Shown piece by piece: positions 13,324 to 57,454 of a stretch of DNA of 64,000 bases (position 1 is the first letter of the stretch; each line of letters opens with the position of its first letter). Made by a program: the position numbers and the translations under genes. The stretch is from the NCBI GenBank assembly GCA_965215365.1, contig CBDCDS010000003.1:632383-696382 (forward strand). Reading direction: 5' to 3'. Under the pieces are notes generated by a model, which saw only the letters and a program-made list of their open reading frames with translations, was not told the DNA's origin and did not search any database. The DNA comes from Gammaproteobacteria bacterium (GTDB lineage: Bacteria; Pseudomonadota; Gammaproteobacteria; Eutrophobiales; Eutrophobiaceae).

Positions 13324-14445
13324 TTGCCCTATAAACACAATACTATGAATATAACCTTAAATAGAGAACAACTGTTACCTGCCTTGTCTGATCTGAATGG
13401 TGTTGTTGAATCCAGGCCGGCCTTGGCAATTCTGGCCAATGTCCTGATCAATATTTCGCCCCAGGAAATCAGGCTGACGACAACAGATATGGAAGTTGAA
13501 CTTTCCGAAGCTATCCCAGGCGAGTTTGGAGAAACGGGGGAAATTACTGTTCCGGCGCGCAAGCTCTTGGACATTTGCCGGACTTTGCCGGAAGCCGCCG
13601 AGATCGCACTGACAGTTGAGGACGAACGGGTAAATGTGGCCTCTGGCAGAAGCCGATTCTCCTTGTTGTCACTGCCGGCACAGGAGTTTCCGAGAGTGGA
13701 ACCCGGCCAGACCGACGTCAGTTTTTCGTTATCGCAGGCGGTGTTCAAGTCGTTGCTGGAGCGTACCGCCTTTGCCATGGCTAGGCAGGATGTGCGCTAT
13801 TACCTGAATGGAGTCCTGTTGGAGGCGGAGGCAGGGCAGCTGCGCGCGGTCGCCACGGACGGACACCGGCTGGCCCTGTGTGAAGTTGACATTACGTTTC
13901 CCGCGGAGGAGAAAAAACAGTTAATCATGCCAAGGAAAGGCGTCATGGAGCTGCTGCGCTTGCTGCATGACTCGGAAGACGAGGTGGAAATCGTCATGAG
14001 CGGAAATCATATCCGCATTGTCAGGGGCGACCTGATCTTCACCAGTAAACTGATAGACGGCAAATACCCGGATTACAACCGGGTCATCCCGGCCCCGGCC
14101 CAACAGCCCGTGCTGGCCCAACGGGAGATATTGAAGCGGAGTCTCGGCCGCGCCTCAATACTATCCACCGACAAATACCGGGGGGTGAGAATAACGCTGG
14201 AAGAAAACAAACTCAGCGCAAACGTCCACAATCCTGAACAGGAACAGGCCGAGGACGAGATTGACGTCGAGTATTCGGGAGAGAAGCTGGAAGTCGGCTT
14301 CAACGTGAGTTATCTGCTTGACGCAGTCAGTATTATTCAGACCGACAAGGTAAAACTTTCCATCTCATCTCCGAAAAGCGGCTGTCTGGTATTGCCTGAG
14401 GAAGGCGAAGGGTGCAAGTACATCGTCATGCCGTTGATGCTTTAA
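13324..14445 (+). CDS. dnaN: DNA polymerase III beta sliding clamp (true start probably ATG at 13345)
   Basis: Full-length DnaN-like sequence (LSLLSLPAQEFP etc.). No dnaA is present upstream. Confidence 0.9.
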   Translation: MPYKHNTMNITLNREQLLPALSDLNGVVESRPALAILANVLINISPQEIRLTTTDMEVELSEAIPGEFGETGEITVPARKLLDICRTLPEAAEIALTVEDERVNVASGRSRFSLLSLPAQEFPRVEPGQTDVSFSLSQAVFKSLLERTAFAMARQDVRYYLNGVLLEAEAGQLRAVATDGHRLALCEVDITFPAEEKKQLIMPRKGVMELLRLLHDSEDEVEIVMSGNHIRIVRGDLIFTSKLIDGKYPDYNRVIPAPAQQPVLAQREILKRSLGRASILSTDKYRGVRITLEENKLSANVHNPEQEQAEDEIDVEYSGEKLEVGFNVSYLLDAVSIIQTDKVKLSISSPKSGCLVLPEEGEGCKYIVMPLML

Positions 14446-14493: not shown

Positions 14494-15582
14494 ATGCGCA
14501 TTGAATGGCTGCACATCCGAAACGTTCGTAACCTGTCGGAACTGAGGTTAGAGCCGGCCGCCGGGCTTAACCTGATCTGTGGCCCGAACGGTAGCGGCAA
14601 GACGGCGCTGTTGGAAGCTATCTATTTTCTGGGGCGCTGTCGCTCATTTCGCACTGCCGCCATACAGCGGGTTATCCGCAACCAGCAACGCGCATTGCAG
14701 GTCAGCGCCGGATTGCTGCTTACCGATCAGCGTCGAATTGTTACGGGGGTGGAGCGCAGCCGGACGGCGCTCGATATCCGTTACAACAACACCACTGTGC
14801 ACAAGGTGTCCGAACAGGCAGCGCAGCTCCCCGTTATTACAATTATTCCGGAAAGCCACAGACTGGTTTCTGGCAGCCCGATATACCGCAGACGCTGGTT
14901 GGACTGGGCCATGTTTCACGTGGAACCACACTATATCAATCTCTGGCGGGACTATTACAAGGCGTTAAAACAGCGCAACAGCTTGCTTCGCTCGAACAGG
15001 GTCGAACAACTGGGTGCATGGGAACAAGCCATGGCGCGTGCCGCAGAAGCTATGACCGCACAGCGTACCGGCTTTATCGACGAACTGGCGGTGGCTATGA
15101 GCGCAGCCGCCCGGCGCTTGCAGATTGCACAAACTACGCTGGAATATGAGTGTGGTTGGCAGGCAGACACTGAGTTAGCCTCATTCCTCGCAGAGCAACG
15201 CAAAGGCGATCAGGAAAGAGGCACAACGCGACAAGGACTGCACCGCAGCGATATGACCATCCACCACGAGGGGAGGGAAGTCGGGCATTTTTATTCACGC
15301 GGGCAGATTAAGCTGTGCATTATTGCACTGTCGCTGGCCCTGGATAGTGTGTTCAGGAAGCGCACCGGGCGCATCCCGCTGATCTTGGCGGACGACCTGC
15401 CGGCGGAGTTGGATCAGAACAGCTTGCTGCGCGTTGTGGATGGATTGGCCGGGCAGGGGAGTCAGGTTTTCATCACTTCAACAGACTCGATTCCGGCAGT
15501 TTCACAGCATCCGCTAAAATTGTTTCACGTGGAACAGGGGCAGATTACCGACTCGGTGTTGTCCGGGTTCAGAAACAAGTGA
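14494..15582 (+). CDS. recF: DNA replication and repair protein RecF
   Basis: Walker A GPNGSGKT. RecF family; conserved position after dnaN. Confidence 0.9.
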   Translation: MRIEWLHIRNVRNLSELRLEPAAGLNLICGPNGSGKTALLEAIYFLGRCRSFRTAAIQRVIRNQQRALQVSAGLLLTDQRRIVTGVERSRTALDIRYNNTTVHKVSEQAAQLPVITIIPESHRLVSGSPIYRRRWLDWAMFHVEPHYINLWRDYYKALKQRNSLLRSNRVEQLGAWEQAMARAAEAMTAQRTGFIDELAVAMSAAARRLQIAQTTLEYECGWQADTELASFLAEQRKGDQERGTTRQGLHRSDMTIHHEGREVGHFYSRGQIKLCIIALSLALDSVFRKRTGRIPLILADDLPAELDQNSLLRVVDGLAGQGSQVFITSTDSIPAVSQHPLKLFHVEQGQITDSVLSGFRNK

Positions 15583-15613
15583 GACTCGAATAGACAAAAA
15601 ATCGGGTAGTGAA

Positions 15614-16045
15614 GTGTGTAAAGTGATTTCGATTAACTTACACAGGAGGACTACCCGATGCAGATCAAAAGGTAAGCGGGTGAAATCATATCGCAGTTGG
15701 CGCGTGGATGATACTACCGATGCTGACGCGCGCGGTCGTTTGAAGCAGTTGGAATGGGTTGCGACGTTACGCGAGGATGGGTGTGGTGAGGCGACGGCAC
15801 TGGCAGCAGTAGGTGGGTCGAGGGCGACCTACAACGGCTGTGTAGAACGCGCCAATGCCACCAGCCGCTATGAGTTCTATCCGTTCTACGAGGGTCCACT
15901 GACCGTGGCGGCCATCAACCGCAAACTGGCCGAGTATCAGCAATACTACAATACCTACCGCCCGCATGACGGTATTGGTTTATTAACCCCAATGGAGTAT
16001 TATCAACAACTCACACAGCCTGCCTCTGAGTCTCATATGTATTGA
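15614..16045 (+). pseudogene. integrase-core (rve) transposase C-terminal fragment, IS3/IS481-type
   Basis: Ends with ...YYNTYRPHDGIGLLTPMEYYQQL, a typical rve C-terminus. The N-terminal part is not transposase-like and there is no DDE N-terminus. Confidence 0.55.
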
Positions 16046-16060
16046 ACCTGGACAATCCGG

Positions 16061-16440
16061 TTGACACAGCATCAGCCGCAGTCCATACTGGCCGTACTAT
16101 GTCCGCTAAGTTTATCTGGCTCAATCTCGCCGGTTTGGGCCGTGACGGGCAAGATCGGCGCGTTCTTGCTGGTGTGGGGTTTCATTATTTGTCCGCTCAT
16201 TGCCATCAATGACTTAGCGCGATTGCTGGACAACATACTACACAGATGGGACGAGTAACCCAAATACTGCTGTGGATCAGCGTGGCCCTGGTGGTGGTCT
16301 GGCCGGCGCTGTTCCTGATTGTGCTGTTGGTGTGGGGATATATCATCTTGCCGATCATCCTGTTGCGGCTGCTGTATCTCTGGTGGCGGTTGCTGGTGGA
16401 CGGCCCCTCAGCCCTCGGCCAGCCGCACGAGCTCCCGTGA
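16061..16440 (+). CDS. two tiny overlapping hydrophobic ORFs (65 and 64 aa), hypothetical membrane peptides
   Basis: Hydrophobic composition only. Could equally be non-coding. Confidence 0.15.
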
Positions 16441-16647
16441 CACCACGTTGAGTTGACCGAGCAGGCGCGGGCCCGGGCGGATGTGCAGCCAGCGACACAG
16501 CGCTAACGCCTGCTCGTAGTCCAGACCGGCCACGCCGCCCAGCGGTAAGGTGTGGATGACGGCGGGGGCGCCCTGTATCAGGATGCGGATGGCATCGTGA
16601 TTGACCGGCAGCACATCGCAATCCTCGCCTCCCCACCAGGCCTGCAC
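16408..16647 (-). CDS. gpT-like frameshift extension of the tail assembly chaperone (G/GT arrangement)
   Basis: 79-aa ORF in a different frame directly after the gpG-like ORF. Contains a G..GLDYEQALALCRWL segment resembling the conserved GT-extension region. Confidence 0.4.
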   Translation of the reverse strand: MQAWWGGEDCDVLPVNHDAIRILIQGAPAVIHTLPLGGVAGLDYEQALALCRWLHIRPGPRLLGQLNVVSRELVRLAEG

Positions 16648-16655
16648 CGCCGCCG

Positions 16656-17000
16656 TCAGTTTCCCAGGGCGCGCGCCTCACCGAGTACCGCTCCGATATA
16701 CGCCGTGACCACCGCCGTGCGCACCCGCGGACGGGCGGTGAGCAGGTCGCGATTCGTCTCATTGAACGCCAGCGCCTTGCCGGCGGAGTCGGTTACATCG
16801 TCCCAACCAATCAGCACCCGGTTGACCAGGGCAATATCCGCGCGCGGCGCATCGAGCAGCGCATCGAGCTCAGCTTGCGTGAGCTCGACAAAGCGGGCGG
16901 TAAAGGTCTGCTTGTCGTGACCACTGCCGCCCGGCGCGGACACGCTCACCGGCATGGTGAACTCGCTGCTCTGCTCGGGTGTCAATAATTTTAATGTCAT
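16656..17000 (-). CDS. phage/GTA tail assembly chaperone, gpG-like
   Basis: 114 aa. Position and size are typical of gpG. Immediately followed by a gpT-like ORF in the -1 frame. Confidence 0.45.
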   Translation of the reverse strand: MTLKLLTPEQSSEFTMPVSVSAPGGSGHDKQTFTARFVELTQAELDALLDAPRADIALVNRVLIGWDDVTDSAGKALAFNETNRDLLTARPRVRTAVVTAYIGAVLGEARALGN

Positions 17001-17350
17001 GTGCTATACTCCTGATTATGTGTCGTGCTCTGATACTCACCGCTCTGCTCACGCTGCCCGTAGTGGCGCTGGCGCACGAGCCCCACTGGTTGCCGCCGGC
17101 GCCCTGGGGTGTGAATCCTTGTGATCTGCCCCGGGTGCGGTGCCCGCTGGCACTGATCAATATCCATGATAATCTGGTCTTAGCGCAACGGCGCCAGGAC
17201 ACCACGCAAGAGCGTTACTGGCTGGACCGGCTGGCGGGGTGGTACGCTTACAACCCCGACTACCGCCACCACCTGCATCCGCACCGCTAGACCGCCGGGT
17301 CTTATTCGTTGTTCCTCCCATGGCCCCGAAGCCGTCCCGGCGGCGGTGCG

Positions 17351-17924
17351 TTATGTCGCCTGGCCGTTGATGATCAAGGCCGGGCCGCTGGGCGGCTGTA
17401 AAATCTCGGCATTGAGTTGCAGCTGCTGCTCGGCGCTACGCCCGGCGGCTTTCATGGCCGCCTCGCCGGCGGGCGAGATGGCGCACAGCGGCGCATAATA
17501 GTCATTGCCGCGCCCGAAGGCGGCGGTCTCAAGATAGCGCACCCCGCGCCGGATTTGGCGCACCTCGCCGGTGATGGCCTGCTCGACGGTACCCGCCACC
17601 GGCGTGTAGGTCACTTTCAGCACATTGTCGGCCTTAATCTTGCCGCCCGGCTCAATGTACAGCCGGGCGCGCGCAGCGTCTAAGGTGTAATCGTCACCGG
17701 CCTTGGCCATCTTGCTCGCCGCCGATGGAATCGCCCAAGTAGCGCTCGCCGATGGGCGCATCGGCGTCGCTCAGGTCAACGAGGTAGAACTCGCCGGCGC
17801 CGATGATGATGTTCGATTTGCCATGTTTGTCTGTGGCTAAGCTCATAGTGTGTCTCCTAGGTCGGGTGGCTCTGTAACAGTCGTTCGCTCTGATAGCGTT
17901 GGCCGTACCACACCACGCCGGCAA
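17351..17924 (-). pseudogene. phage/GTA major tail protein-like gene disrupted by a frameshift
   Basis: Two overlapping ORFs in different frames (17694..17924 and 17351..17761), beta-rich tail-tube-like sequence, upstream of the chaperone pair. Confidence 0.35.
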
Positions 17925-18467
17925 AGTGTTCCGGGCCGACGATCCGATCTGGAAAACCCACTACCCGCCGAACGGGTTCGGCTGCCGCAGCCGACGAGCT
18001 GGGCAAGATCAGTGTCCCCAAACTGGAAGGGGCGCCACCGGCTATCGCCCGCCCGCACGTGCAGGACGCGCTGGATTATGGCGAGGTGTTGATTGACCAG
18101 CCGGAATCTTATGAAAGGCAAGGCAAACGTCACACGCTGATCGCCTATTACGAGGATGACGGCTGGTGGCGACACGTCATCGAAGTGCGGCACAAGCAAC
18201 TGCTGCTGCTGACAGCATTTCGAGACGAATATTCTGATATACGCACCGAGGATGTACTGCGCCGCCCGGGCCTGGTGACCGTGAGAGACTGGGACGAGAA
18301 CCGCTGGCGGGACAGACCGAAAGAGAGTGGGAAGTGAAGCATGGAAGGCGAATATCTCCACGGGCTCCCCGGCACAATCCGCTATGGATAGCCGGGTTCT
18401 ACGGTAAATCTGTACTCTACCTCACTTCCCAGAGTGCAGTATAACACAAAATGAAAACAGAACGTAA

Positions 18468-19991
18468 CTACTCGCCCCCCTTACCCTGATCTCTTGTTCT
18501 GATCTGGTTTTTCTTAACCGTTTTATTTTTGAGCGGTTTTTCCACCATGGTGGCGGCGTCTCCCTTGAGTGCTATCTCGATGGCGGCGAGGGGATTGTAG
18601 CCCTTCAGGGTCATAGACTGCAAGTAGCTGGAGATGCGGCAGTAGGTGTCGGCGTAGGCGGTGGTTCGGAAGCAGCCGGAGACTTTTTGTTTGACTTTAG
18701 CCATACGGATATCGCGTTCGGCGCGGTTGTTGGTGAACGGCACGTTGGGGTCGCGGGCGAAGCGGAGGACTTCGGTTTCGTACTTGACGAGGGCATCATG
18801 GAGGTTTTGTGCCTCACATTGGGCAATCCGTCCGCGTTGGCCGGTGAGCCGTTTCGGGGGTGTGGGGAGTTCCCGTTTGGCTTGTGTCAGGATAGTCCGG
18901 TAGCGGGTGCGCAGGGACTGGTAGTCGGTCTCGCTGAGTGCCTTGTTTTTATGTGTGCGCACCTGTCGGCAGGTCTTGAGCAGGAGGCGGCTCATACGTT
19001 GGGCCCAGGCATGGCCGTGGGCGTCCTCGATAAAGGCCAAGTTACGCAACAGGTGACTGCCGCACAGGGCATGCTCGCAGTTGTCATAGGCGAAGTAGCT
19101 GGCCCAGCGGTCGTGCACGAGAACACCGCCGTAGCGGGGGACGATGCCGATGTCCTTGAGGGCGTCCCCGCCCCGCTTGCGGTGGCAGTGTTTCAGTACC
19201 AGGTTCCCGGCACTGGTGCTGTGCAGCCAGTGTTGTGTGCGGTCGATGCGCAAGGAGGTCTCATCGGCGTGCAGCACGGGCTCTGTGAGCAGGCGGGCGA
19301 TAGCCGCCCGCTCCCACCCGGCCAGGGCCTCATGCACCCGCGTGAGCCAGGCCAGTAAGGTCGCCTCGGCGACGGCGCGCCCGGTCAGTGCATGAAGTGT
19401 CTGCGCCGTACGTTTGAGCGAGAGCATTTGGGCCGTTAACAGGTGCGTGGCGAAAGCCACGATGCCAGGGCCGTATTGTAAAGGCCCCGGCATGTCATCG
19501 GGAAACGCCCCGTGGGTCTCAGTGCCACAGCGCGGACAGGTTTTTATCTCGGCGTCAATGGTCAACTCGGTCGTCTCGAAGACTATATCGACCTTGACTC
19601 GTCGCACATGGCCGGTGGGGGCGGTGCCTTTGAGATCATGCCCGCAGGCCCGGCAGCCGGTCACGGGCACCGTGCGGGTCTGAGCCACCACGCGCCGGGA
19701 CGCGCTGGGCACCGTCCCGGTCTGCGGCCCCTTGCCCTGCTTGCCGGGCCGTGTGCGCGCACTGTCATCGGGGTCGGTGCGGGAACTGGGCAGGCTGGAG
19801 TTGTGCGCCCCCTTCGGTGTGGTCTTCTCTAAGAACACCGCCAGCAGCAACTCGAATAGCAGCAACATCGACTCGAACAGCGCACGCCCTTCGGGACTCA
19901 GCGCGCCGTCGGCGCACAACGCCTTAAAACGCATTCGGATGGCCTCGAACTCCGCACGCAATGAGGCCTTGTTCACCGTGGCCATGTGCAC
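18468..19991 (-). CDS. IS66-family transposase (TnpC-type)
   Basis: 507 aa with HADETSLRI, CGSHLLRNL and NNRAERDIRMAKVKQKVSGCFRT, the hallmark IS66 TnpC motifs. Confidence 0.85.
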   Translation of the reverse strand: MHMATVNKASLRAEFEAIRMRFKALCADGALSPEGRALFESMLLLFELLLAVFLEKTTPKGAHNSSLPSSRTDPDDSARTRPGKQGKGPQTGTVPSASRRVVAQTRTVPVTGCRACGHDLKGTAPTGHVRRVKVDIVFETTELTIDAEIKTCPRCGTETHGAFPDDMPGPLQYGPGIVAFATHLLTAQMLSLKRTAQTLHALTGRAVAEATLLAWLTRVHEALAGWERAAIARLLTEPVLHADETSLRIDRTQHWLHSTSAGNLVLKHCHRKRGGDALKDIGIVPRYGGVLVHDRWASYFAYDNCEHALCGSHLLRNLAFIEDAHGHAWAQRMSRLLLKTCRQVRTHKNKALSETDYQSLRTRYRTILTQAKRELPTPPKRLTGQRGRIAQCEAQNLHDALVKYETEVLRFARDPNVPFTNNRAERDIRMAKVKQKVSGCFRTTAYADTYCRISSYLQSMTLKGYNPLAAIEIALKGDAATMVEKPLKNKTVKKNQIRTRDQGKGGE

Positions 19992-20665
19992 TGTGCCTCC
20001 ACCGCCATCATCGCCGCCAGCACCGCCAGCCGCTCGGCCGGGGGCAAGTCACGATAACGCCGCCCCCAGTTCTCAGCCTTGCGCTTGACCTGCTGGCGGT
20101 GCGTGAAGTTGCGCCCCGCATAGCGCACCCAGTGCACCCGGTCCGGCACAAAATTGAACCAGACCCGCTCGGTCACCACCCCGCCCTGATTCATCACCTG
20201 CAAGGACACACTGCGCCAGCCCGCCAGCACCTCATCATACAAGGCCGAAGGATACCCCGACACCATCACCGCACAGGGCAGCCCCTGCAGTAACGCCAGC
20301 AGCGCCTCATGGTCTGAGTCCTCGTAGTCATACCGGTAACGGTGCCGTGACTTGCGCGTGCTGTGCAGGTAGGGCGGGTCGCTGTACACCAACTCCGTGC
20401 CGTCAAACGGAAAAGTCGCCAACCAGCGGTGACAACACCCCTGCACCAACTCCACCGGATACCCACACGTAAACCCCGCCAACGCCCGCACATCAAGATC
20501 AATCCCAATGTTGCGCAACGCCGCCGGCTTGCGCTGCATAATCGCCCCGCCGCCTAAGTGTGTCTCAATGTACACACTGTGCGGCGGCATCATCGCAATG
20601 AGCGGCTGGCACAGACCCGTCGTGGCTTTCGACCCTCGGTACGCATTCCCCATGACGACCAACAT
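19973..20665 (-). CDS. D12-class N6-adenine DNA methyltransferase (Dam-like), cargo of the IS66 element
   Basis: Motif I-like YIETHLGGGA and motif IV DPPY. 230 aa. Overlaps the transposase start by 19 bp. Confidence 0.65.
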   Translation of the reverse strand: MLVVMGNAYRGSKATTGLCQPLIAMMPPHSVYIETHLGGGAIMQRKPAALRNIGIDLDVRALAGFTCGYPVELVQGCCHRWLATFPFDGTELVYSDPPYLHSTRKSRHRYRYDYEDSDHEALLALLQGLPCAVMVSGYPSALYDEVLAGWRSVSLQVMNQGGVVTERVWFNFVPDRVHWVRYAGRNFTHRQQVKRKAENWGRRYRDLPPAERLAVLAAMMAVEAQCTWPR

Positions 20666-20817
20666 AACGCCATGACGCTATGTTGTCAAGGACGCCTTGA
20701 CAAAAAATTCAGTAGAATTAGAGGGAGGGGGCGAGTAGTTACAACAGAACAATTCATACCAGTAAGTATATCACGGCGGTCTGTTTTGTGGTCAGTTTGG
20801 GTAAGTATTTGATACAG

Positions 20818-21669
20818 TCAGACTTTTTCAAACAGGGTCAGGCTTAATATCTGTAATATTGTGTAGAGTTCGGTAGGCAGATCGAGCCGTTTTTTGATGA
20901 TGGCGACCAAGACATAAACGCCAATAGCGGTCCGGATTTGGGTTTTCACAGCATTCTCAGAGGTGCCGAAGAAGGCCTTGATACGCAGGTGTTGTTTGAT
21001 CCATTTGAAGAACAACTCGACCTGCCACCGGCAACGATACAAATCGGCAATGGTGACGGCCGGCAGGGTCAAGTTGTGGGTGAGGAACACCCGTGTTTTG
21101 CCGGTGTTGGCATCGTGATAGCGGATACGACGCAGGGTGTCGGGATAGCGCGGTGCGGAGCGTTGGCCGGTCAGCACGCCGGTCTGGTCGATGCGGCGGG
21201 AGTAGCGGCGCGCAAACTTGAGGTTGGACTTGGCTCGGATTACGAACAAGGCCGAGGCTAAGGTGAGGCCATGCAGTCGTTCGAAGTCGAGGTAGGCACG
21301 GTCCATGACGTAGAAGGCGCCGGGCTCGGGGATAAGCAGGTCGAGGGCATTGACATCGTGCAGTTTACCGTCGGAGACATGGATAAAGGCGGGGATACTG
21401 CCTTGTAAGTCCAGTAAGGTATGCAGTTTGATGGCGGCCTTGGTCTGTCGGAAGTGCGCCCAGGGGAATACGGACAGGCACAGGTCGACCTCGATATCGC
21501 GCAGGCTCTCGCGGTGGGTGAGTTGGGCGAAGGCCAGGCATAGGAACTGGTCAAGACAGGTAAAAGACTTGACGTAGCGATTGCCGTGGTAGCGTTGGAC
21601 GCAGCGGCGGAAAGTGTGCATGGGCAAGTGGGCCATGAGTTGTGAGAAGACGAAATTGCCGGTATACAT
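20818..21669 (-). CDS. DDE transposase, IS4/IS5 superfamily (DDE_Tnp_1)
   Basis: 283 aa with ...DRAYLDFERL... and YRCRWQVELFFKWIKQ (the catalytic E/K region). Confidence 0.7.
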   Translation of the reverse strand: MYTGNFVFSQLMAHLPMHTFRRCVQRYHGNRYVKSFTCLDQFLCLAFAQLTHRESLRDIEVDLCLSVFPWAHFRQTKAAIKLHTLLDLQGSIPAFIHVSDGKLHDVNALDLLIPEPGAFYVMDRAYLDFERLHGLTLASALFVIRAKSNLKFARRYSRRIDQTGVLTGQRSAPRYPDTLRRIRYHDANTGKTRVFLTHNLTLPAVTIADLYRCRWQVELFFKWIKQHLRIKAFFGTSENAVKTQIRTAIGVYVLVAIIKKRLDLPTELYTILQILSLTLFEKV

Positions 21670-21884
21670 GGGGCTGCACTCCTTGGTTATGAATGGGAGT
21701 CACAGCATGGCAGTCAGGGTCGGTGGAGTTCAAGTCGATGACAGGCATAAAACGACTGTTTATTAAGTTGTATCAATGAGTTATGATGCACGAACAAGGT
21801 TTTCTTGGGACACTAGTGAGGCGGCCTCTAAAAATCAGGGAATTATATACGATAGCGCCGAACCGCTATCAAGACCGATATTGG

Positions 21885-22514
21885 TTACTCCGGCTCAAAT
21901 CTTTGCAGGAATGCAAGCGCATTTTTCAAAAAGTCCTTGCCATTGCGGAATCTCCCCAACCCTGTATTGCAACTATCGCAAACATAATCCCTTGCATCTC
22001 CAGTTAAATGTCCATGATCTAAAACAATCTTGACGGTTACCCCCACTATGCCGTCTTTTTCACATATAGGACAACGCCAGAACACTCCTATTGGGGGCTT
22101 ATAAGGAACAGAGCCATCTTTACGCTTCGCATGATTGCGCACGCCGTCAATGCCCCTTCTGCAATCTACGCAGGTAGGACGATATATCGTTGAACCATCC
22201 TTCCGAGTTTGGTTTGCATCGAAATGTTTTAACGCTTTAAGGGTAAAACACTGATTACAGACTTTTTCAATTTGATCTTTTGGCTTCAATCCTACATGCT
22301 TCATAAACTCGCGCTGACGGGCGCTGATTTGAATAGGATATTCCTCTGGAGCAAAAGGCTTAACCGCATCTGTCGGTAAAACTTGCACGCGTCCACCCAA
22401 TGGAATTTTAACTTCGACCCCTCGGTCTGTGCGTTTTTGCACCATTGCCAACCGCCCATCAGCAACAATGACAACCCATTCAGGGGGCTGCTCTGGCGGT
22501 TCATTTGATGTCAT
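21885..22514 (-). CDS. HNH/Endonuclease VII-fold nuclease; putative type II restriction endonuclease
   Basis: C-terminal CPICEKDG...LDHGHLTGDARDYVCDSCNTGLG matches the CxxC...DHxHxTGxxRGxxCxxCNxxLG signature of phage T4 Endo VII-like HNH nucleases. It overlaps the upstream MTase gene by 4 bp (ATGA). Low GC. Confidence 0.55.
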   Translation of the reverse strand: MTSNEPPEQPPEWVVIVADGRLAMVQKRTDRGVEVKIPLGGRVQVLPTDAVKPFAPEEYPIQISARQREFMKHVGLKPKDQIEKVCNQCFTLKALKHFDANQTRKDGSTIYRPTCVDCRRGIDGVRNHAKRKDGSVPYKPPIGVFWRCPICEKDGIVGVTVKIVLDHGHLTGDARDYVCDSCNTGLGRFRNGKDFLKNALAFLQRFEPE

Positions 22515-23293
22515 GCGGTTGCTGCCATGATCTGGTTTCCCAGCCTGGTTTTTGCAATGTCAATGTATTCCTCGGATATATCAATGCCGATCCAATCACG
22601 ACCGTTATAAGCTGCCATTTTGCAAGTTGTGCCTGACCCGCACATCGGATCAAATACCAGATCGCCGGGATTCGTCCACGAAAGGATATGATCTTCGGCC
22701 AGCTTTTCTGGAAATACTGCCGGATGATTAAATGCTATTTTGTCCCTTGTGGTTCCTCCCAGACCAACCGCATAAGCCCATATATTGGTCCTGGTCTTTT
22801 CTTTCTTTAATTCTTTCAGCACTTTGTTATTGACCGCATCCGGGCCCTTGTTGTGAACCATCATTTCGTAGCCGTTGCGGACTGTTTTTTCCTTAATCGG
22901 ATTGAATGTATCAGGTGACCCTTTGGAAAATACAAACATGAACTCGTGACAGTTAGTGTAAGCGTTGCTGCGCATGAAAGGTGTATTTTTCTTCTGGTAA
23001 ATCATCACGTCATGGACGCGGAATCCCAAAGCCTGGAAAAACAGCGCTTGCTTCATACTGGTCAGCGTCCTGCCGCCATGACCATTTATCTTGTCACCCA
23101 CGACCCAAACAACCACGCCTCCTTCCTTCGTGACACGAAACAGTCCTGCCGCTATATCTTCAAATGGAAATGAATAACCCTGGTAATTCCTCAAATTGTC
23201 ATACGGCGGCGATGTGACAGTTAAATCAACCATGCCCTCATCCATGGCGGCCATAATTTTCACACAGTCGCCCGTGTAAAGGTGGTTTCTCAT
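22511..23293 (-). CDS. DNA methyltransferase (beta-class N4-C/N6-A; TSPPY motif IV precedes FDPMCGSGTT motif I)
   Basis: 260 aa with TSPPYDNL and FDPMCGSGTT in permuted order, typical of beta-class amino-MTases. Low GC. Translationally coupled to the nuclease gene. Confidence 0.75.
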   Translation of the reverse strand: MRNHLYTGDCVKIMAAMDEGMVDLTVTSPPYDNLRNYQGYSFPFEDIAAGLFRVTKEGGVVVWVVGDKINGHGGRTLTSMKQALFFQALGFRVHDVMIYQKKNTPFMRSNAYTNCHEFMFVFSKGSPDTFNPIKEKTVRNGYEMMVHNKGPDAVNNKVLKELKKEKTRTNIWAYAVGLGGTTRDKIAFNHPAVFPEKLAEDHILSWTNPGDLVFDPMCGSGTTCKMAAYNGRDWIGIDISEEYIDIAKTRLGNQIMAATA

Positions 23294-23327
23294 GCGATCA
23301 GGTTCTCATAATTCAGGGCGCGTTGCT

Positions 23328-24338
23328 TCAACGCGACTGCGGGTAGTGGTCTCGAATCAGTGATAACAAGCGGGTGGCATCATCTGTTGCCTCCCATTCA
23401 TTATCCTCATTGACCACAATCAGCTCGGTTTTGTTACCGACACCAGTCAGGCTGATTTGCCATGAACCGGACGCGTTGCTGGCATTTTTCTCACGCGTTT
23501 GTCCACTTGCGCCGAGCTGATAGGCACCCTGTTCCGAGTCGCTGCCGGTTACCTGCAGACCACTGTTTTGTAAGGCAATTCCGGTGTTCTTCCAGGCCTG
23601 TTCAAAGGCTTCGGGAATGGCCAGATACATTTTGCCGTCACCGGCATCGACTACCCGTAAGGCACCATCAGCGCCAGTTTGGGAAGCACCTGCCCCCGGC
23701 TCATCGACAGGCGCGGCCGGCGCCGGTGTTGCGGCAGGTTCACCGGCGCCAAGGAACCGGGCGAGCTCGGCAGCAAATAGTCTTTCCTGTTCCTGGTCTT
23801 GGTCTTGCTCGAGCCAGTCGGCATTGTCATCAATTCGGGTTTGGCGCAGTTGGCTGATGACCAGCGTTGAGCTGTCCGGCGTGCCGCCGGCTTCGGCAAA
23901 AATTTTGTATTTGTAACGATACTGCAAGCCAGCCTGTTGTTCGGTCGCAGACCAACCGGTCTCCAGCACCCCCAGCTCACTATCGTCAAGCTCAACAGAG
24001 TAATTTTCCGAGGCAATAAACTCAAGCAAGCGCGGCCACAGCTGTTGTGTTGACATCGGCAGGGTCAACCACTGTTCGCCTGTTTCGGTGCTGCCCGAAG
24101 CAATATCGGGGCCGCCGGGCGCGCGCGGATTTTTATAACTGGACAACGTGACCGGTGCCTCGCCCGGTATGTTCATGGAATCATTGATAGCATTGGCGGT
24201 CAAATCCGGCGGGATTTCCAAATCCGGCATGCTCTCGCTTTTCTTGTACTCGCTCTTTTTGTCGGGCAGGTACGCGCAAGACGCTAGCAGAGACAGGCCC
24301 GACAGGATGGTTGCAAGAGTTAAAACAGGTGTTTTCAT
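23328..24338 (-). CDS. bamC: outer membrane protein assembly factor BamC (NlpB) lipoprotein
   Basis: Lipobox LLASC, 336 aa. Conserved position downstream of dapA. Confidence 0.75.
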   Translation of the reverse strand: MKTPVLTLATILSGLSLLASCAYLPDKKSEYKKSESMPDLEIPPDLTANAINDSMNIPGEAPVTLSSYKNPRAPGGPDIASGSTETGEQWLTLPMSTQQLWPRLLEFIASENYSVELDDSELGVLETGWSATEQQAGLQYRYKYKIFAEAGGTPDSSTLVISQLRQTRIDDNADWLEQDQDQEQERLFAAELARFLGAGEPAATPAPAAPVDEPGAGASQTGADGALRVVDAGDGKMYLAIPEAFEQAWKNTGIALQNSGLQVTGSDSEQGAYQLGASGQTREKNASNASGSWQISLTGVGNKTELIVVNEDNEWEATDDATRLLSLIRDHYPQSR

Positions 24339-24400
24339 AACAGACCTCTGGTTGGTATTGCGTGTTCATACAAGGGGCATCCCGCTCAGGAGCGGCCCTG

Positions 24401-25297
24401 TCAAATCACCTCTGCTTGTTGCATGGCCGCTTCAACCCGAGCATGGAGCTCTTCGGAAAGCCAGGTCATGGGCAGGCGGATGCCGTTTTCGATCAGGCCG
24501 AGCCGTTGCATGGCCCACTTGGTCGGTATCGGGTTGGATTCAAGAAACAGCGATTGGTGCAAGCCCAGCAGTTTGGTGTCTAAAGCCTTGGCTGCGTCCC
24601 GGTTACCGGCGCGCGCCAGCCGACACAGTTCGTGCATTGCCGCCGGCGCCACATTGGCCGTGACGGAAATCACCCCATCGCCACCCATCAGCATAAAATC
24701 ACAAGCCGTCTCATCATCGCCGCTGAGCAGCAGAAAGTCCTCGCCACAGGTTGCGCGCAGCGCGCAGACCCGGTCCACCTCGCCGGTTGCTTCCTTGACC
24801 CCGATGATGTTATCGACCTGCGCCAGCCGGGACACGGTTTCAGGCAGCAGGTCGCAAGCCGTGCGCGCCGGCACATTGTAGAGCAGCTGGGGAATGGAGA
24901 CACTATCGGCAATCACCTTGAAGTGTGCATACATACCGGCCTGGGTCGGTTTGTTGTAGTACGGCGTCACCAGCAAACAGGCGTCGGCGCCGGCTTGTTG
25001 TGCATAGGCCGTCAACTCGATAGCCTCGATCGTTGAGTTTGCGCCGGTACCGGCGATGACCGGCACGCGCCCGTTGACGACCTCCACAACCTGTTTGATG
25101 ACCCGGCAGTGTTCATCCGGCATCAACGTTGCTGATTCGCCTGTTGTGCCTACGGCAACAATACCGTCCGACCCGTTGTCAATGTGGAATTCGACCAGCT
25201 GCGCCAAGGCGTTGAGGTCCAGCGGCGCATCCGGGGCGACGCCCCCCTGCATGGGGGTGATGATGGCAACTAGGCAGCCTGAGAACAGATCTTTCAT
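24401..25297 (-). CDS. dapA: 4-hydroxy-tetrahydrodipicolinate synthase
   Basis: 298 aa, full DapA-like sequence (GTTGE, YNVP). Confidence 0.9.
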   Translation of the reverse strand: MKDLFSGCLVAIITPMQGGVAPDAPLDLNALAQLVEFHIDNGSDGIVAVGTTGESATLMPDEHCRVIKQVVEVVNGRVPVIAGTGANSTIEAIELTAYAQQAGADACLLVTPYYNKPTQAGMYAHFKVIADSVSIPQLLYNVPARTACDLLPETVSRLAQVDNIIGVKEATGEVDRVCALRATCGEDFLLLSGDDETACDFMLMGGDGVISVTANVAPAAMHELCRLARAGNRDAAKALDTKLLGLHQSLFLESNPIPTKWAMQRLGLIENGIRLPMTWLSEELHARVEAAMQQAEVI

Positions 25298-26033: not shown

Positions 26034-26077
26034 GGGAACCTCTAAAAATACCCTCCGTGGTATTTTTAGAGGTTCCC
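26034..26077. repeat. REP-like perfect hairpin GGGAACCTCTAAAAATACC-CTCCGT-GGTATTTTTAGAGGTTCCC
   Basis: 19-bp perfect inverted repeat with a 6-nt loop. Family members are at 31509, 37969, 41221, 45211, 50189, 55794 and 56838. Confidence 0.8.
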
Positions 26078-26080
26078 ATC

Positions 26081-26380
26081 ACTTATTGAGAGCCATCATG
26101 TTTCACAAGGCAACAAGCGACTGGGTGAGATCTGCGGGATAGCCCGCATATCTCACCGAGTGATGCGAAGATCGCGCCGGATTGGTTCTGCCTGCGGGTG
26201 CCTGCGACCGAAACCATAGTGGTTCTCTGGTTGAGGAAGCACGTGCCTGCAGGCAGAACCAAGACCCGCGAGGGCGCATCAAGCGCAGTGGGTTATGGGG
26301 AAAGAGTAGCAGTATGATCATCACTTATTGAGAGCCATCATGTTTCACAAGGCAACAAGCGACTGGGTGAGATCTGCGGG
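26081..26380. repeat. MITE-like element, inverted orientation: 58-bp terminal partial copy plus one full 238-bp copy separated by ATAG; ends 17 bp before the bcp start codon
   Basis: Reverse complement of the 239-bp unit at 31690-31928, with terminal inverted repeats CCCGCAGATCTCACCCAGT / ACTGGGTGAGATCTGCGGG. Confidence 0.8.
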
Positions 26381-26397
26381 CTAAGGGTGACGCGACT

Positions 26398-41255: not shown

Positions 41256-45210
<3,955 letters not shown>

Positions 45211-50208: not shown

Positions 50209-53154
50209 TTAATCTATCCCATCAATAAACGTATCAATATATGACATAATCCGGCTGACGATACGCTCGCCAACTGTACGTCTTTCCCGGAGCCTGGGTT
50301 GTTGGTCCATAATCCGGATGACGTCAGCCGGTAAAGGCCTTCTGCTGGTGTACAGGCAATTAGCGATCACCTTGTCTAATCCATCCCGGTCTAGTCCCTC
50401 CTCCGCGCATAGCGACTGCAGGGCTTGTTGCCGTTGTGCTGACAGGTATTGTGCAAACGCGTGGTTAACGTCTCCATTCTGCGGCAGTGTCGGCACCTGT
50501 TCTTCAATGAAGCGTTGTATCAGTTCTTGCTTGCTGCGCAGTTCGGGTTCATTCTCCAACGTGCTGATAATCGCCTGCACCTGTCGGTGGTATGCGTCCG
50601 GTTTGGCTTGGCGCAGTCTGATGACCAGCTCGAGGATGTAGCTGACGTTGATGTTATCTCTGTGGATCAGCTCCACCTCAAAGTCGATATCGTCCAGTAT
50701 GGATACTGTTTCCTTCTGCCGGTCGGTCTTTACCTTGTCGTTCAAATCCAGGTATTTGCTCTTGTAGTCCGCAAAGGTCTGTTGCTCCAGGGCCAGCTCA
50801 GCAAAATCAAATTCGGTGAAGCCAGTCAGTACGTTCATAAGACGCAAGAGATTCCTGAACGCCTTAATAAAGGCAAGCTGCTCTGCCTCCTGTTGTAGTG
50901 TGTCAACACAATCTGGCGTGGCCGCGATGCCAAGCAGCGCCGCCACGGCGTCATTGAACCGTTTAAGGTATGCCTGGTAAGGTTCAAGGGTGATGGTGTC
51001 AACCGCCTCCTTGTCGGCAAACAGCGCGATGGCTTCGTCCGTGGCCGGTTTCAGGTTCCGATAACAGACGACATTGCCGTGTGACTTTTTCGAACCCAGG
51101 ATGCGATTGGTACGGGAGAACGCTTGCACCAGGCCGTGGTATTTCAGGTTTTTGTCCACGTAGATGGTATTGAGCCACTTGCTGTCAAACCCGGTCAGAA
51201 ACATATTCACCACCAGCAGGATATCAATGCCGGCGCCCGTGCGTCGGTTTTTGTCCCGATACCGGACTCGTTTACCGATGTCTCTGTAATAGTCGTAGAA
51301 GGTGTCGGTTTTATAGTTCGTGCCGTACGCCTTGTTGTAATCCCTGATGCAGTGCTCCAGCCGCGCCCGGCTGTGCCGGTCGGTGTACTGGCGGGAACTG
51401 TCGGCGGGATCATCGGCGCCGTAGGCTGCTTCCTGGTCTCGCACCCGGTTCTCATCCTCGGCCCGGCCTGGTACACTCCCCGACCCCGCCGCCATGCCGG
51501 CGAAGTACGTATCGGCAACATCGCTCACCTCGCGGTCTTCCTCATTGGCCTGCCAGGAAAATATGGTTGCTATGTTGAGGTCATGCGTGCCGGCCTCCCG
51601 TTTGCGCCTGAACAGGTCGTAATACTTGAGCAAAGTCCTGATATCGGCAACGCAAAATAGCGCGTTGAACACGCGGCCATGAGTCTTGCCGTCATGGTGG
51701 GCGATGATGTGATCGACGATGGCCTCAAGACGTTCTGCCGCGGCCAGCGCCTCGGCGGTGTCTATCGCCTCCACCCGGATATCCGCCCGGTTGTGCTGCC
51801 GGTCTTTGAAAGTGCCGATATATTCAATGGAAAACCGCAGTACATTCTCATCGTTAATCGCATCCGTGATGACGTACTTGTGCAGACACTCGCCAAACAG
51901 ATCTGTGGTGGTGCGCTTGCCATACTCATTGCCCAGCGCATTCTCGGCAAAGATGGGGGTGCCGGTGAAGCCGAACAGCTGCGCTTTGGGGAAGTGGTCG
52001 CGGATACGCTTATGGGTGTCGCCAAACTGGCTGCGGTGGCATTCGTCAAAAATGAATACCATGCGCTTGTCCCGCAACGGTGTCATGGTGGTTGCATGGC
52101 GGCGCTTGTGAATGGCGTTGTTTAACTTCTGCAAGGTGGTGACAATCAACCTGGTATCATCGCCGAATTGTTCTACCAGCCTGGTGGTATTGTCGGTCCC
52201 GTCAACGCTGCCTTTTTTATAGCTGTTGAAGTCCTGGATGGTCTTGTAGTCCAGATCCTTCCGGTCCACCACGAACACCACCTTGTGGATGCCGGAGGTG
52301 CCGGTGAGGATTTGCGCCGCCTTGAACGACGTCAGTGTTTTGCCGGACCCGGTAGTATGCCAGATATAGCCGAACCGGTCGGAAGTCCTGACCCGCTCGA
52401 CAATCGCCTCCACCGCATGATACTGATACTGGCGCAGCGCCAGCAGCAGCTGGTCGGTTTCGTTCAACACCACGTATTTTGTAACGAGCTTGGACAGCTG
52501 GCACGGCTCCAGGAAAGTATCGGCAAACTCGCTGAGTTGCGTGATACGCCGGTTCTCCCGGTCGGCCCAGAAAAACGTTTGCTTGAAGTCGCGCTGTTTG
52601 ATCGGGTTGTTGGCGTAATATTTGGTATTGACGCCGTTGCTGAGCACAAACACCTGAATGTATTCGAACAACCGCCATCCTGCCGAATAGGAATGACGCT
52701 GGTAACGGTTGGTCTGGTTAAAGGCCTCCTTGAGCGCCAGGCCGCGGCGTTTTAACTCTATCTGTGCCAGCGGCAGGCCATTGATGAGCAAGGTCACGTC
52801 ATAGCGATTCCGGTAGCTGCCCGCCATCTCCAGCTGTTGGGCCACCTGAAACTCGTTCTTGCACCAGTTGATCTGATCGACCAGTTCCAGATACCCGACC
52901 TCGCCGTCGTCCCTGTGGTAGTCCAGCTTGGCCCTGAGCTTTTTGGCTTTGTCGAAGATATTGCCTCCGGAGAGCGCTACCAGGATGTTTTGAAATTCCT
53001 TGTCGGACAGGGTGATGCCGTTGTGCTGCTGCAGTTGTGTTTTCAGGTTGCCGACCAAGTCGTCCTCATTGCGGAGAAGGACATGCTCGTAACCCAGGGC
53101 TTGCAGCTGGACAACCAGTTTCTGTTCCAGAACCGCTTCTGATTGGGTGGCCAT
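50209..53154 (-). CDS. hsdR: type I restriction enzyme R subunit
   Basis: 981 aa with TGSGKT, DECHR and helicase motifs. Confidence 0.9.
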   Translation of the reverse strand: MATQSEAVLEQKLVVQLQALGYEHVLLRNEDDLVGNLKTQLQQHNGITLSDKEFQNILVALSGGNIFDKAKKLRAKLDYHRDDGEVGYLELVDQINWCKNEFQVAQQLEMAGSYRNRYDVTLLINGLPLAQIELKRRGLALKEAFNQTNRYQRHSYSAGWRLFEYIQVFVLSNGVNTKYYANNPIKQRDFKQTFFWADRENRRITQLSEFADTFLEPCQLSKLVTKYVVLNETDQLLLALRQYQYHAVEAIVERVRTSDRFGYIWHTTGSGKTLTSFKAAQILTGTSGIHKVVFVVDRKDLDYKTIQDFNSYKKGSVDGTDNTTRLVEQFGDDTRLIVTTLQKLNNAIHKRRHATTMTPLRDKRMVFIFDECHRSQFGDTHKRIRDHFPKAQLFGFTGTPIFAENALGNEYGKRTTTDLFGECLHKYVITDAINDENVLRFSIEYIGTFKDRQHNRADIRVEAIDTAEALAAAERLEAIVDHIIAHHDGKTHGRVFNALFCVADIRTLLKYYDLFRRKREAGTHDLNIATIFSWQANEEDREVSDVADTYFAGMAAGSGSVPGRAEDENRVRDQEAAYGADDPADSSRQYTDRHSRARLEHCIRDYNKAYGTNYKTDTFYDYYRDIGKRVRYRDKNRRTGAGIDILLVVNMFLTGFDSKWLNTIYVDKNLKYHGLVQAFSRTNRILGSKKSHGNVVCYRNLKPATDEAIALFADKEAVDTITLEPYQAYLKRFNDAVAALLGIAATPDCVDTLQQEAEQLAFIKAFRNLLRLMNVLTGFTEFDFAELALEQQTFADYKSKYLDLNDKVKTDRQKETVSILDDIDFEVELIHRDNINVSYILELVIRLRQAKPDAYHRQVQAIISTLENEPELRSKQELIQRFIEEQVPTLPQNGDVNHAFAQYLSAQRQQALQSLCAEEGLDRDGLDKVIANCLYTSRRPLPADVIRIMDQQPRLRERRTVGERIVSRIMSYIDTFIDGID

Positions 53155-53168
53155 ACAGATGACCCGCG

Positions 53169-54401
53169 TTAAATAAACATTTGCTGCAACAGCCCCTGCT
53201 TGAAGAAGCAGGCCTGTTCGACCTGTTTCGCTACCAGTTCTATTTTCCGGTCGATGGCGGAGAGGAAATTGGCGATTTTTTGTTGTTCACATTTTGAGGG
53301 TATGCTTAATTTGAGGAATCTGAGATGAGAAGCATATAAATGAATAACCGATATTCCCTGCGCCAATCTGGCTATATCAGCCTTCTTATAATTCAAATAA
53401 TACGCAAGAAACACCCCGTTTTCCTGGCAGCGAATTATGTTTATGTCACCTCCCAGCGCAACCCCGTCAAGCCTTACACAAGCGGCGGTTGCTATGTCTG
53501 ATGCAATCTCGCCGGATGAGGGAATAATGACATCGTTTTTGTTGCTCAATTCCAGCTGAGAAGGTGGGATATTAGTGCTCGAAATTACCAGGGAAATTGT
53601 AGTTCCATAGTGGGTGTAGAGTTCCCCATACCTGATACACTTTAATTCTCCATTTGTTACGACATCGCTCTTTGAAATTCCTTTACCCTTACTTATCTTT
53701 GAAATATCACCCAATGATTTCTCCTCCCAATCCGGATAATCCCTCCCATCCTCATCCTTGAACCGAATTTCCTGACTGAACAGTTTTTGCATCATGCCTT
53801 GCTTGTACTGTTCCAGCAGCGACTGCTTCCGGCTCAGTTGCTCAATTTTGATATCAACCGCCGACAGGAAAGCAGCGATTTTTTGTTGTTCTCTTATAGC
53901 CGGAATACATAGTGGGATCTTTTTGATCTCACTCTTGCTTATTTCAAGGAAGGTAGAACCATTTGCTCTACGCAAAAAATGCTTTTTGTTTGCAAGAAGC
54001 CAATAGTAAAGATACTCATTTGAGAACATTGAGTCATTTACAATAAACGACTGAAACCCCTGGTTTGTTGTGCAGACTTCACGAGCAATGCTGACCTCGC
54101 CTATTGTTGCCCTGCTGGTGAATAAAATTGTCCCAACAGGCAGTAAGGCAGCAGAGGATTGAGCAATACCTTCCCTGGTTATTTTGCGGATACTGCCAGT
54201 AGCATATTTCGTCTTGATTTCTGTCGGAGTGAACCAGTTTATATCACCGTCCCATAAGCTCCTCTTGCCAGTGCTGGGGGTGCCACCCCCAACAATATCT
54301 CCGACATGATCCAACTTTTTCATCTCCCAATCCGGATAATCCCCCCCATCCTCATCCTTAAACCGCAACGCCGGCACGCGTTGTTGTTGTGCTGTAATCA
54401 T
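53169..54401 (-). CDS. hsdS: type I restriction-modification S (specificity) subunit
   Basis: 410 aa with two target-recognition domains, each preceded by the conserved repeat RFKDEDG(G/R)DYPDWE. Confidence 0.85.
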   Translation of the reverse strand: MITAQQQRVPALRFKDEDGGDYPDWEMKKLDHVGDIVGGGTPSTGKRSLWDGDINWFTPTEIKTKYATGSIRKITREGIAQSSAALLPVGTILFTSRATIGEVSIAREVCTTNQGFQSFIVNDSMFSNEYLYYWLLANKKHFLRRANGSTFLEISKSEIKKIPLCIPAIREQQKIAAFLSAVDIKIEQLSRKQSLLEQYKQGMMQKLFSQEIRFKDEDGRDYPDWEEKSLGDISKISKGKGISKSDVVTNGELKCIRYGELYTHYGTTISLVISSTNIPPSQLELSNKNDVIIPSSGEIASDIATAACVRLDGVALGGDINIIRCQENGVFLAYYLNYKKADIARLAQGISVIHLYASHLRFLKLSIPSKCEQQKIANFLSAIDRKIELVAKQVEQACFFKQGLLQQMFI

Positions 54402-54659
54402 TCGCTCACGTTAATCAGGACATCGGGCAGGTGGCGCATGGACAGGATTACTCAGAATCAATATGCTCATTATTACGGACGTGATGACAATCAGTGGGCG
54501 CATGATAATTTCAATCATGTTTTTCCTCTGATGATCGGGCTAACGCTGAAATCGCTGCCATTATGGCGAATGGGATTGCGATATGCAAATCTACCATCCC
54601 TTTGATTTTCAGGCCGGTAACGGTATAGTAAATCTACCCTCAATAAGCATTAAAGAGAT

Positions 54660-55413: not shown

Positions 55414-55454
55414 TGGAGACACCTGTGAGTCCTGGTTGCGCTCCCCGGTCATAC

Positions 55455-55612
55455 CGACTATCAGGTGGCATTGCGGGAAATAGAAACCCTGATGACGGCC
55501 CGGCCGGATTCGCCCGAGGGTGGAAAACTGGATGTGTTGACGACACTGGTCGAAGCATACGAGCGCAGGCATTATCCTCTGGAGCTACCCGATAATGAAC
55601 TGCCGCGCTAGC
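55455..55612 (+). pseudogene. HigA-like antitoxin N-terminal fragment (about 90% nt identity to 56494-56640)
   Basis: Encodes ...[46 protein letters not shown] then an immediate stop. The HTH domain is missing. Confidence 0.7.
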
Positions 55613-56448: not shown

Positions 56449-56451
56449 TCC

Positions 56452-56838: not shown

Positions 56839-56872
56839 AGGCCACCTCTAAAAAATTAGAGGTGGCCGTGCA

Positions 56873-57434: not shown

Positions 57435-57454
57435 AGAATGATCCGGCCAACGCG

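Follow-up and report, generated by a model that had tools for sequence, protein, structure and literature searches.

Which kind of system is encoded by a low-GC pair of genes lying directly behind the 3' end of the dapA-bamC operon of an uncultured gammaproteobacterium, how did it get there, and does it still appear capable of restriction? The pair is found in a stretch of 64,000 nucleotides of a Gammaproteobacteria bacterium (contig CBDCDS010000003.1, positions 632,383 to 696,382), which is referred to here as the window; coordinates are window positions unless another locus is named. An initial annotation had proposed that the two genes, one for a beta-class DNA methyltransferase (MTase) and one for a nuclease with an endonuclease VII signature, form a horizontally acquired type II restriction-modification (R-M) system with the methylase gene (M) preceding the restriction gene (R). 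Our analysis indicates that this cassette is very probably an intact type IIP R-M system of the Hpy99I/M.Hpy99I family, inserted between the convergent genes bamC and recF, with CGWCG as its predicted target and N4-methylcytosine (m4C) as its predicted modification. The analysis shows the homology, the architecture, the conserved residues, the M-R linkage and the history of the insertion; this specificity, activity in vivo, dimerisation, translational coupling and read-through from dapA-bamC are inferred.

Layout of the cassette

The cassette is about 1.5 kb long (window ~21811-23327) and, together with its immediate surroundings, is composed of the following parts.

22511..23293, minus strand: MTase gene, 260 amino acids (aa); beta-class N6/N4 DNA MTase, M.Hpy99I orthologue, predicted to form m4C in CGWCG
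21885..22514, minus strand: nuclease gene, 209 aa; predicted Hpy99I-family beta-beta-alpha-Me type IIP restriction endonuclease
22511..22514, minus strand: ATGA overlap of MTase stop and nuclease start, read in the sequence; putative coupling
23294..23327, minus strand: bamC-MTase spacer, 34 nt; upstream insertion junction of the cassette
21811..21884, minus strand: 3' flank of the cassette, kept in sister strain L087, where it abuts recF directly
23328..24338, minus strand: bamC (PF06804, 2.1e-17; BamC homologues; synteny in L087 and in the more distant relative L088)
24401..25297, minus strand: dapA (PF00701, 7.8e-102; synteny in L087 and L088)
23328..25297, minus strand: dapA-bamC host operon, given as context; the cassette abuts its 3' end
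15583..21810, no strand assigned: mobile-DNA block, given as context, separating the cassette from recF; not present in L087

The two genes overlap as had been described, since on the minus strand the ATG of the nuclease gene (22514-22512) shares letters with the TGA of the MTase gene (22513-22511), giving the ATGA read at 22514-22511. An in-frame stop 12 nt upstream of the MTase ATG rules out a longer MTase. The bamC stop occupies 23330-23328 and the MTase ATG begins at 23293; the adjacency to bamC reported in the initial annotation therefore stands, but the distance is 34 nt and not 35 bp. The open reading frame (ORF) list and a reading of the sequence gave M and R as the only ORFs of the cassette, and no small helix-turn-helix (HTH) C-protein gene there. 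The GC content is 0.45-0.485 over 21800-23199 versus 0.525-0.62 in bamC and dapA, in line with the drop noted earlier, and most of the mobile DNA towards recF is at 0.60-0.69. The claimed setting, with insertion sequence (IS) elements on one side and bamC-dapA on the other, was likewise found: transposase genes of the IS4 family and of IS66 are present, as are bamC and dapA.

The nuclease as a homologue of Hpy99I

When the nuclease was compared with all PDB sequences using phmmer, the sole real match was Hpy99I (3fc3/3gox; E=5.8e-34), to which aa 81-207 align without gaps (chain residues 73-199), 57 of the 127 positions (45%) being identical. The PADLOC REase_II model PDLC03494 matches the nuclease at 8.1e-36 over profile positions 64-189 of 190, and Pfam yields two domains, both well above their curated cut-offs: PF02945 Endonuclease_7 (aa 147-204, E=1.4e-12) and PF18275 His_Me_b4a2 (aa 83-124, E=5.7e-9), the latter defined on a restriction enzyme. 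No NCBIfam model matched the nuclease, and aa 1-80 had no sequence match in the Pfam or PDB phmmer searches. The T4 endonuclease VII signature that had been assigned to the 209-aa protein is present in the stretch CPIC ... DHGHLTGDARDYVCDSCNTGLG, that is, C148-x-x-C151...D166-H-G-H-L-T-G-D-A-R-D-Y-V-C179-D-S-C182-N183-T-G-L-G, within the PF02945 match; the two further cysteine pairs that had been placed in the N-terminal part correspond to C86/C89 and C115/C118.

The co-crystal structure of Hpy99I gives these residues a context. It has an N-terminal SH3-like barrel (residues 1-53), which is required for solubility and activity, and two beta4-alpha2 repeats with one Cys4 zinc site each; Asp148 and Asn165 are metal ligands and His149 is the general base; bases are contacted by Asn83, Gln84 and Arg94 in the major groove and by Asp162 and Arg170 in the minor groove, the central W being read by Arg170 (PMC2699513). 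The numbering of the window nuclease equals that of native Hpy99I plus 18, and every one of these residues has its counterpart. The catalytic residues are kept as D166, H167 and N183 (Hpy99I Asp148, His149 and Asn165); the five base-contacting residues are identical (N101, Q102, R112, D180 and R188 for Asn83, Gln84, Arg94, Asp162 and Arg170); and zinc sites 1 and 2 are formed by C86/C89/C115/C118 (Cys68/71/97/100) and C148/C151/C179/C182 (Cys130/133/161/164). In an alignment of 70 homologous sequences, conservation at the catalytic, base-contacting and cysteine positions is complete or no lower than 90%.

An AlphaFold2 (AF2) model built from the same alignment has a mean predicted local distance difference test (pLDDT) score of 90.8 and shows, in the N-terminal part, a five-strand barrel at aa 13-54 with pLDDT >90 (strands 13-16, 21-29, 32-36, 44-46 and 51-54). 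A Foldseek search of the PDB with this model returned 3fc3 as the only significant match (204 columns, TM 0.64/0.70); the secondary matches were weak and consisted of SH3 and Tudor barrels. The architecture can thus be laid out as follows.

22353..22478, minus strand: SH3-like five-strand beta-barrel, aa 13-54, from the AF2 model and the Foldseek superposition
22083..22268, minus strand: first beta4-alpha2 repeat, aa 83-144, with zinc ligands C86/C89/C115/C118 and the predicted major-groove readers N101, Q102 and R112
21891..22082, minus strand: second beta4-alpha2 repeat, aa 145-208, with the active site D166/H167/N183, zinc ligands C148/C151/C179/C182 and the predicted minor-groove readers D180 and R188

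Because the barrel appears in the model and the model superimposes on 3fc3 over its full length, the whole architecture matches that of Hpy99I. Judged from its sequence and its model, then, the nuclease is a full-architecture Hpy99I homologue and not a generic Endo VII protein.

The methyltransferase and its linkage to the nuclease

The MTase gives a full-length match to PF01555 (E=1.4e-42, well above the curated cut-off). Both motifs on which the beta-class assignment had been based, TSPPY followed by FDPMCGSGTT, were read in the 260-aa translation.

23201..23215, minus strand: catalytic motif IV TSPPY, aa 27-31, from the translation; T27, S28, P29, P30 and Y31 are invariant in an alignment with the MTases of loci L001-L005
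22625..22654, minus strand: S-adenosylmethionine-binding motif I FDPMCGSGTT, aa 214-223; D215, P216, M217, C218, G219, G221, T222 and T223 are invariant in the same alignment

The serine in motif IV is in keeping with an N4-cytosine enzyme. The MTases adjoining nuclease homologues in L001-L005 all have TSPPYD and DPMCG(S/A)GTT and are 63-73% identical to the window MTase, even where the nucleases share only ~35%. The intact Helicobacter MTases (L025, L026, L028, L030 and L035-L037, of which L035 is from H. canis and L036 from H. cinaedi) are 67-69% identical over aa 1-251, and the frameshifted MTase of H. pylori SHZY19 (L042) is 63% identical over aa 1-156. M.Hpy99I (jhp0756) is a beta-class enzyme for which single-molecule real-time sequencing has documented m4C in CGWCG (PMC3936762). 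From this orthology, and from the motif IV serine, CGWCG with m4C is predicted to be the specificity of the window MTase.

The linkage of M and R was surveyed by tblastn over 86 loci (L001-L086), L007-L086 of which came from a genome scan. An orthologous MTase, 61-76% identical to that of the window, adjoins the nuclease homologue in 84 of them: in 60 its gene precedes that of the nuclease in the same orientation, and in 24 it lies downstream in convergent orientation; of the two loci lacking an adjoining MTase, one (L072) is cut at the contig edge. Relatives with the same gene order have M-R overlaps of 4-17 nt. The convergent loci are mostly from Bacteroidota, and an HTH gene (HTH_19) lies upstream in L005 and L006, the two for which gene calls were examined. 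In L042, the nuclease is identical to crystallised Hpy99I at 123 of 127 positions and a TSPPYD MTase adjoins it.

The family itself is small. Among 1.84 billion representatives of 50%-identity clusters, 8,100 match the nuclease at E<=1e-3 (the Endo VII superfamily) but just 123 at <=1e-10, and resemblance to Hpy99I through both repeats is confined to about 50; a word-indexed search gave 83 clusters of nuclease relatives and the genome scan 145 loci. One relative (P0083) is already named 'Hpy99I family type II restriction endonuclease' in one source, and most of the relatives for which public records give a name are called 'endonuclease domain-containing protein'. The closest full-length relatives of the nuclease (53-79% identity) are mostly from marine metagenome-assembled genomes (MAGs), many of which bear sponge-related names (Candidatus Poriferihabitans, Poriferisocius, Poribacteria, Spongiihabitans thiooxidans); Arenicellales and Rhodothermales are also represented. 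That such relatives come from several phyla at 65-75% identity suggests recent exchange within one habitat. The neighbourhoods of the relatives are chromosomal IS and defence islands with DruA, BrnT, PemK and IS elements; no close homologues were found on plasmids.

Predicted working of the system

By analogy with the prototype, the MTase would N4-methylate one cytosine in CGWCG on both strands and thereby protect the sites of the host. The window alone contains 133 such sites, so that an active nuclease would be intolerable without the MTase. At an unmethylated CGWCG, a homodimer of the nuclease would encircle the DNA, N101, Q102 and R112 reading the outer C:G and inner G:C pairs through the major groove and D180 and R188 reading the minor groove, the central W included. 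The single-metal beta-beta-alpha-Me site (D166, H167 as general base, and N183) would then cut each strand, and cleavage is expected to depend on a divalent metal and to leave the unusual 5-nt stagger of the Hpy99I family. The M-then-R order with its 4-nt overlap, which is common to relatives, suggests coupled translation, in which the methylase would be made first and the nuclease would follow from the ATGA overlap.

A separate observation concerns another pentamer. GGACC/GGTCC (GGWCC, AvaII-type) is the second most under-represented 5-mer in the window, with 59 copies observed versus 128 expected (third-order Markov; ratio 0.46). This depletion suggests long-term exposure to a GGWCC-specific R-M system encoded elsewhere.

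Acquisition and fate of the cassette

Two loci reached via BamC homologues bear on the history of the insertion. In L088, whose BamC is 66% identical and whose DNA is 74-81% identical to the window, the order is ACT-domain gene, dapA, bamC, convergent recF and dnaN, and the ends of bamC and recF overlap. L088 is an empty site without the cassette.

The sister strain L087 has a DNA identity of 91-98% over shared genes (blastn). After bamC it has the same spacer with a 9-nt indel, followed by the first ~25 codons of the MTase gene, which is broken directly before TSPPY. Next come 1.79 kb of unrelated DNA with a 197-aa ORF and a DDE_Tnp_1_assoc fragment, and then nuclease codons 93-209, 97% identical and fused in frame to a DDE_Tnp_1_assoc-like fragment; the resulting chimeric ORF of 187 aa (L087 10763-11326, plus strand) has neither the SH3-like barrel nor the first CxxC motif. 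The 3' flank is followed directly by the end of recF (window 22238..21810 versus L087 10973..11402, 96% identity by blastn), and at this junction the two strains have different final recF codons. It should be noted that bamC of L087 is split into ORFs of 230 and 136 aa, owing to a frameshift or an assembly error.

As read from these alignments, the insertion of the cassette between convergent bamC and recF predates the split of the window strain and L087; L087 then lost M and R together by one replacement, while the window strain kept both intact and later gained the block at 15583-21810 between the cassette and recF. The empty site in L088 and the copy in L087 confirm the horizontal acquisition, and they show that the pair came to lie beside bamC-dapA only by the chance of where it was inserted. 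The proposal of a horizontally acquired type II R-M system with an M-then-R order is hence upheld by the GC contrast (45-48% versus 55-60% in the neighbours), the empty site, the decayed sister copy and the M-R linkage in 84 of the 86 loci.

Expression context

The initial annotation had assumed co-transcription with bamC-dapA. Given the 34-nt spacing, in which no terminator is predicted, and the lack of a usable promoter in the cassette, such co-transcription is plausible. As regards the other end of the cassette, the 3' flank of the nuclease gene (21811..21884) contains a 7-bp hairpin. It was rejected as a terminator, being no better than shuffled sequence (fold z-score 0.11) and absent from the terminator scan.

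Alternative explanations

Several observations weigh against an intact and active Hpy99I-type system, and most of them would fit a cassette of this family that no longer restricts, in which the MTase has become a de facto orphan and the nuclease is inert or unexpressed, on its way to a decay of the L087 type. L087 has lost the R-M system, with little of M and only the 3' part of R remaining, and in L042 (9025-10375) the Hpy99I and M.Hpy99I genes are both split across frames and form a pseudogene pair; the family thus decays readily, and an inactivating point mutation is conceivable here too. No promoter of the cassette's own was recognised, the sole promoter-like match (23280-23253) lying within the MTase ORF. 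Of the PADLOC models, the one that best fits the MTase carries the label 'orphan methyltransferase' (oMTase, 1.3e-84) and comes ahead of MTase_II (1e-61). Moreover, CGWCG is not avoided in the window, as would be a sign of restriction pressure (133 sites observed versus 156 expected, ratio 0.85, rank 73 of 512 5-mers), and the Pfam scan gave no PF18350 SH3_17 match in the N-terminal barrel of the nuclease. On the other hand, both ORFs are full length relative to the 70 homologues, the catalytic, zinc-binding and base-reading residues are all intact and the ATGA coupling has been kept; the loss of M and R by L087 in one event is, in addition, the route expected while R is active. The absence of CGWCG avoidance is what would be expected after a recent acquisition, so composition is uninformative on long-term restriction pressure. 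Since an intact nuclease gene adjoins the MTase gene and the linkage is conserved, the PADLOC label reflects the training set of the model rather than the gene: the cognate nuclease adjoins the MTase here and in the relatives, and an orphan MTase is excluded by the intact Hpy99I-family nuclease gene that overlaps its stop. A cassette that has ceased to restrict is therefore, in our opinion, unlikely.

A working R-M system of the Hpy99I fold might also recognise a sequence other than CGWCG or methylate a base to something other than m4C, given that the identity to Hpy99I is only 45% over the two repeats and that the N-terminal barrel is divergent in sequence. However, the five base-contacting residues are identical and conserved family-wide, and the partner MTases, 61-76% identical throughout the family with the Helicobacter prototypes included, argue for a single specificity. 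The divergence of the barrel carries little weight in this respect, for the Hpy99I barrel makes no contact with the recognised bases (PMC2699513). We regard a changed specificity as quite unlikely. The divergent barrel and linker might nevertheless add DNA binding at secondary sites, alter fidelity or change recognition and, as a separate matter, the insertion behind the essential dapA-bamC operon might tie expression of the cassette to an operon that cannot be silenced; such additional roles seem distinctly improbable, and neither is demanded by the evidence.

The origin of the pair can be questioned as well, because the genes could be cargo of the adjoining degraded prophage rather than an R-M system, namely an Endo VII-type resolvase or a homing or packaging HNH protein with an anti-restriction MTase. 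PHROG matches to phrog_67 (DNA methyltransferase) and phrog_2633 (endonuclease VII), and the remnants of phage tail genes and a phage-type Dam fragment within 5 kb, are compatible with this. However, identity to phage proteins is 26-36% in the best matches, none of which extends over 80% or more of the protein, compared with the E=5.8e-34 match to Hpy99I; the prophage/IS block is absent from L087, where the cassette abuts recF, which points to separate acquisitions; the GC content of the cassette is 46% versus 60-67% in the phage remnant; and the relatives reside in chromosomal IS and defence islands and not in phages. The matches of the nuclease are accordingly not confined to phage packaging or homing HNH proteins without R-M neighbours, the phage relatives being distant and the MTase being linked in nearly all surveyed loci. 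A phage origin of this kind is thus extremely improbable, and an intact Hpy99I-family R-M system remains by far the reading that we favour.

Other features of the window

The mobile-DNA block at 15583-21810 is a mosaic of the following elements.

16656..17000: phage tail assembly chaperone/tape measure protein (TMP)-like, within the block
17351..17761: major tail protein-like, within the block
18468..19991: IS66 transposase, within the block
19973..20665: Dam-like (phrog_56) MTase fragment, within the block
20818..21669, minus strand: IS4-family transposase, 283 aa, within the block

Plasmid-borne relatives of the IS4-family ORF are about 1083 nt long and align with it as two separate segments, a pattern suggestive of an internal deletion and a defective IS; candidate terminal inverted repeats of 15 nt with 80% complementarity lie at 20802-20816 and 21769-21783. 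A composite transposon formed with a second IS4 copy, for which a 283-aa ORF at 30633..31484 was considered, was rejected: no linking repeat was found, and the ORF, which relatives have as well, encodes a conserved sigma-70 family factor.

A type I R-M system is encoded at 50209-59738 on the minus strand and includes hsdR (50209..53154; HSDR_N, SWI2_SNF2 and EcoR124_C), hsdS (53169..54401; Methylase_S) and hsdM (58149..59738; HsdM_N and N6_Mtase), with ~3.7 kb of uncharacterised DNA between hsdS and hsdM. A 243-nt repeat is present in 2.3 tandem copies at 31686-32255 (99-100% identical) and in inverted copies (92-94%) at 26077-26386; its unit boundaries form the perfect palindrome ACTGGGTGAGATCTGCGGGTT|AACCCGCAGATCTCACCCAGT, and it looks like an intergenic element of the miniature inverted-repeat transposable element (MITE) or repetitive extragenic palindromic (REP) type.

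The usual dnaN-recF-gyrB cluster is interrupted, dnaN (13324..14445) and recF (14494..15582) being ~27 kb away from gyrB (42769..45210). As recF is convergent with bamC in L087 and L088 too, the arrangement is typical of the lineage. The presence of mnmG (gidA) at 60470..62494 is consistent with an origin-proximal region.

Comparison with known systems

On the evidence of its two proteins, the pair belongs to a characterised family, for the prototype of which both a crystal structure and the methylated motif have been determined, and it is not an unusual candidate. What appears only mildly new is a sub-branch with a sequence-divergent N-terminal barrel that occurs mostly in marine MAGs. The gain is one of annotation and little beyond it, in that the pair can be named an Hpy99I-family type IIP R-M system with predicted CGWCG/m4C specificity. 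Together, the window, L087 and L088 provide a natural example of the life cycle of an R-M cassette, with insertion between convergent genes followed by retention or by joint loss of M and R. The conservation of the base-reading residues and of the partner MTases across very distant phyla suggests a single-specificity family. If this is true, methylation motifs in many MAGs could be predicted from sequence alone.

The initial annotation had called Endo VII/HNH restriction enzymes uncommon. This is overstated, as HNH ranks second in frequency among the catalytic classes of type II restriction endonucleases (PMC4081073), although the Hpy99I family itself is small. Other HNH type II restriction endonucleases share the catalytic class and the single-metal mechanism with the window nuclease (PMC4081073); they gave no sequence match in the PDB search, and their recognition modules and target sites differ.

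With T4 endonuclease VII (PF02945), a phage Holliday-junction resolvase, the window nuclease has the beta-beta-alpha-Me core and the CxxC...CxxC zinc site in common, a relationship that Sokolowska et al. pointed out for Hpy99I (PMC2699513). However, T4 endonuclease VII is structure-specific, has a single zinc-binding nuclease domain and lacks an MTase partner, whereas in the window nuclease the repeat is duplicated and supplies predicted sequence-reading residues, an SH3-like barrel is present at the N-terminus, and there is a cognate MTase that is conserved.

Hpy99I/M.Hpy99I itself (H. pylori J99, jhp0755/jhp0756; PDB 3fc3, 3gox) differs from the window pair in several aspects: the identity is 45% over the repeats, the barrel and linker of the window nuclease are beyond sequence recognition and ~18 residues longer, and the host is an uncultured gammaproteobacterium with a GC content of about 58%, for which the specificity is a predicted one. 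The catalytic and base-contacting residues of the two nucleases are nevertheless identical, and the adjacent gene, upstream on the same strand as in the Helicobacter Hpy99I loci, encodes an orthologous beta-class N6/N4 MTase that has TSPPY(D) and shares 63-69% identity with the Helicobacter copies.

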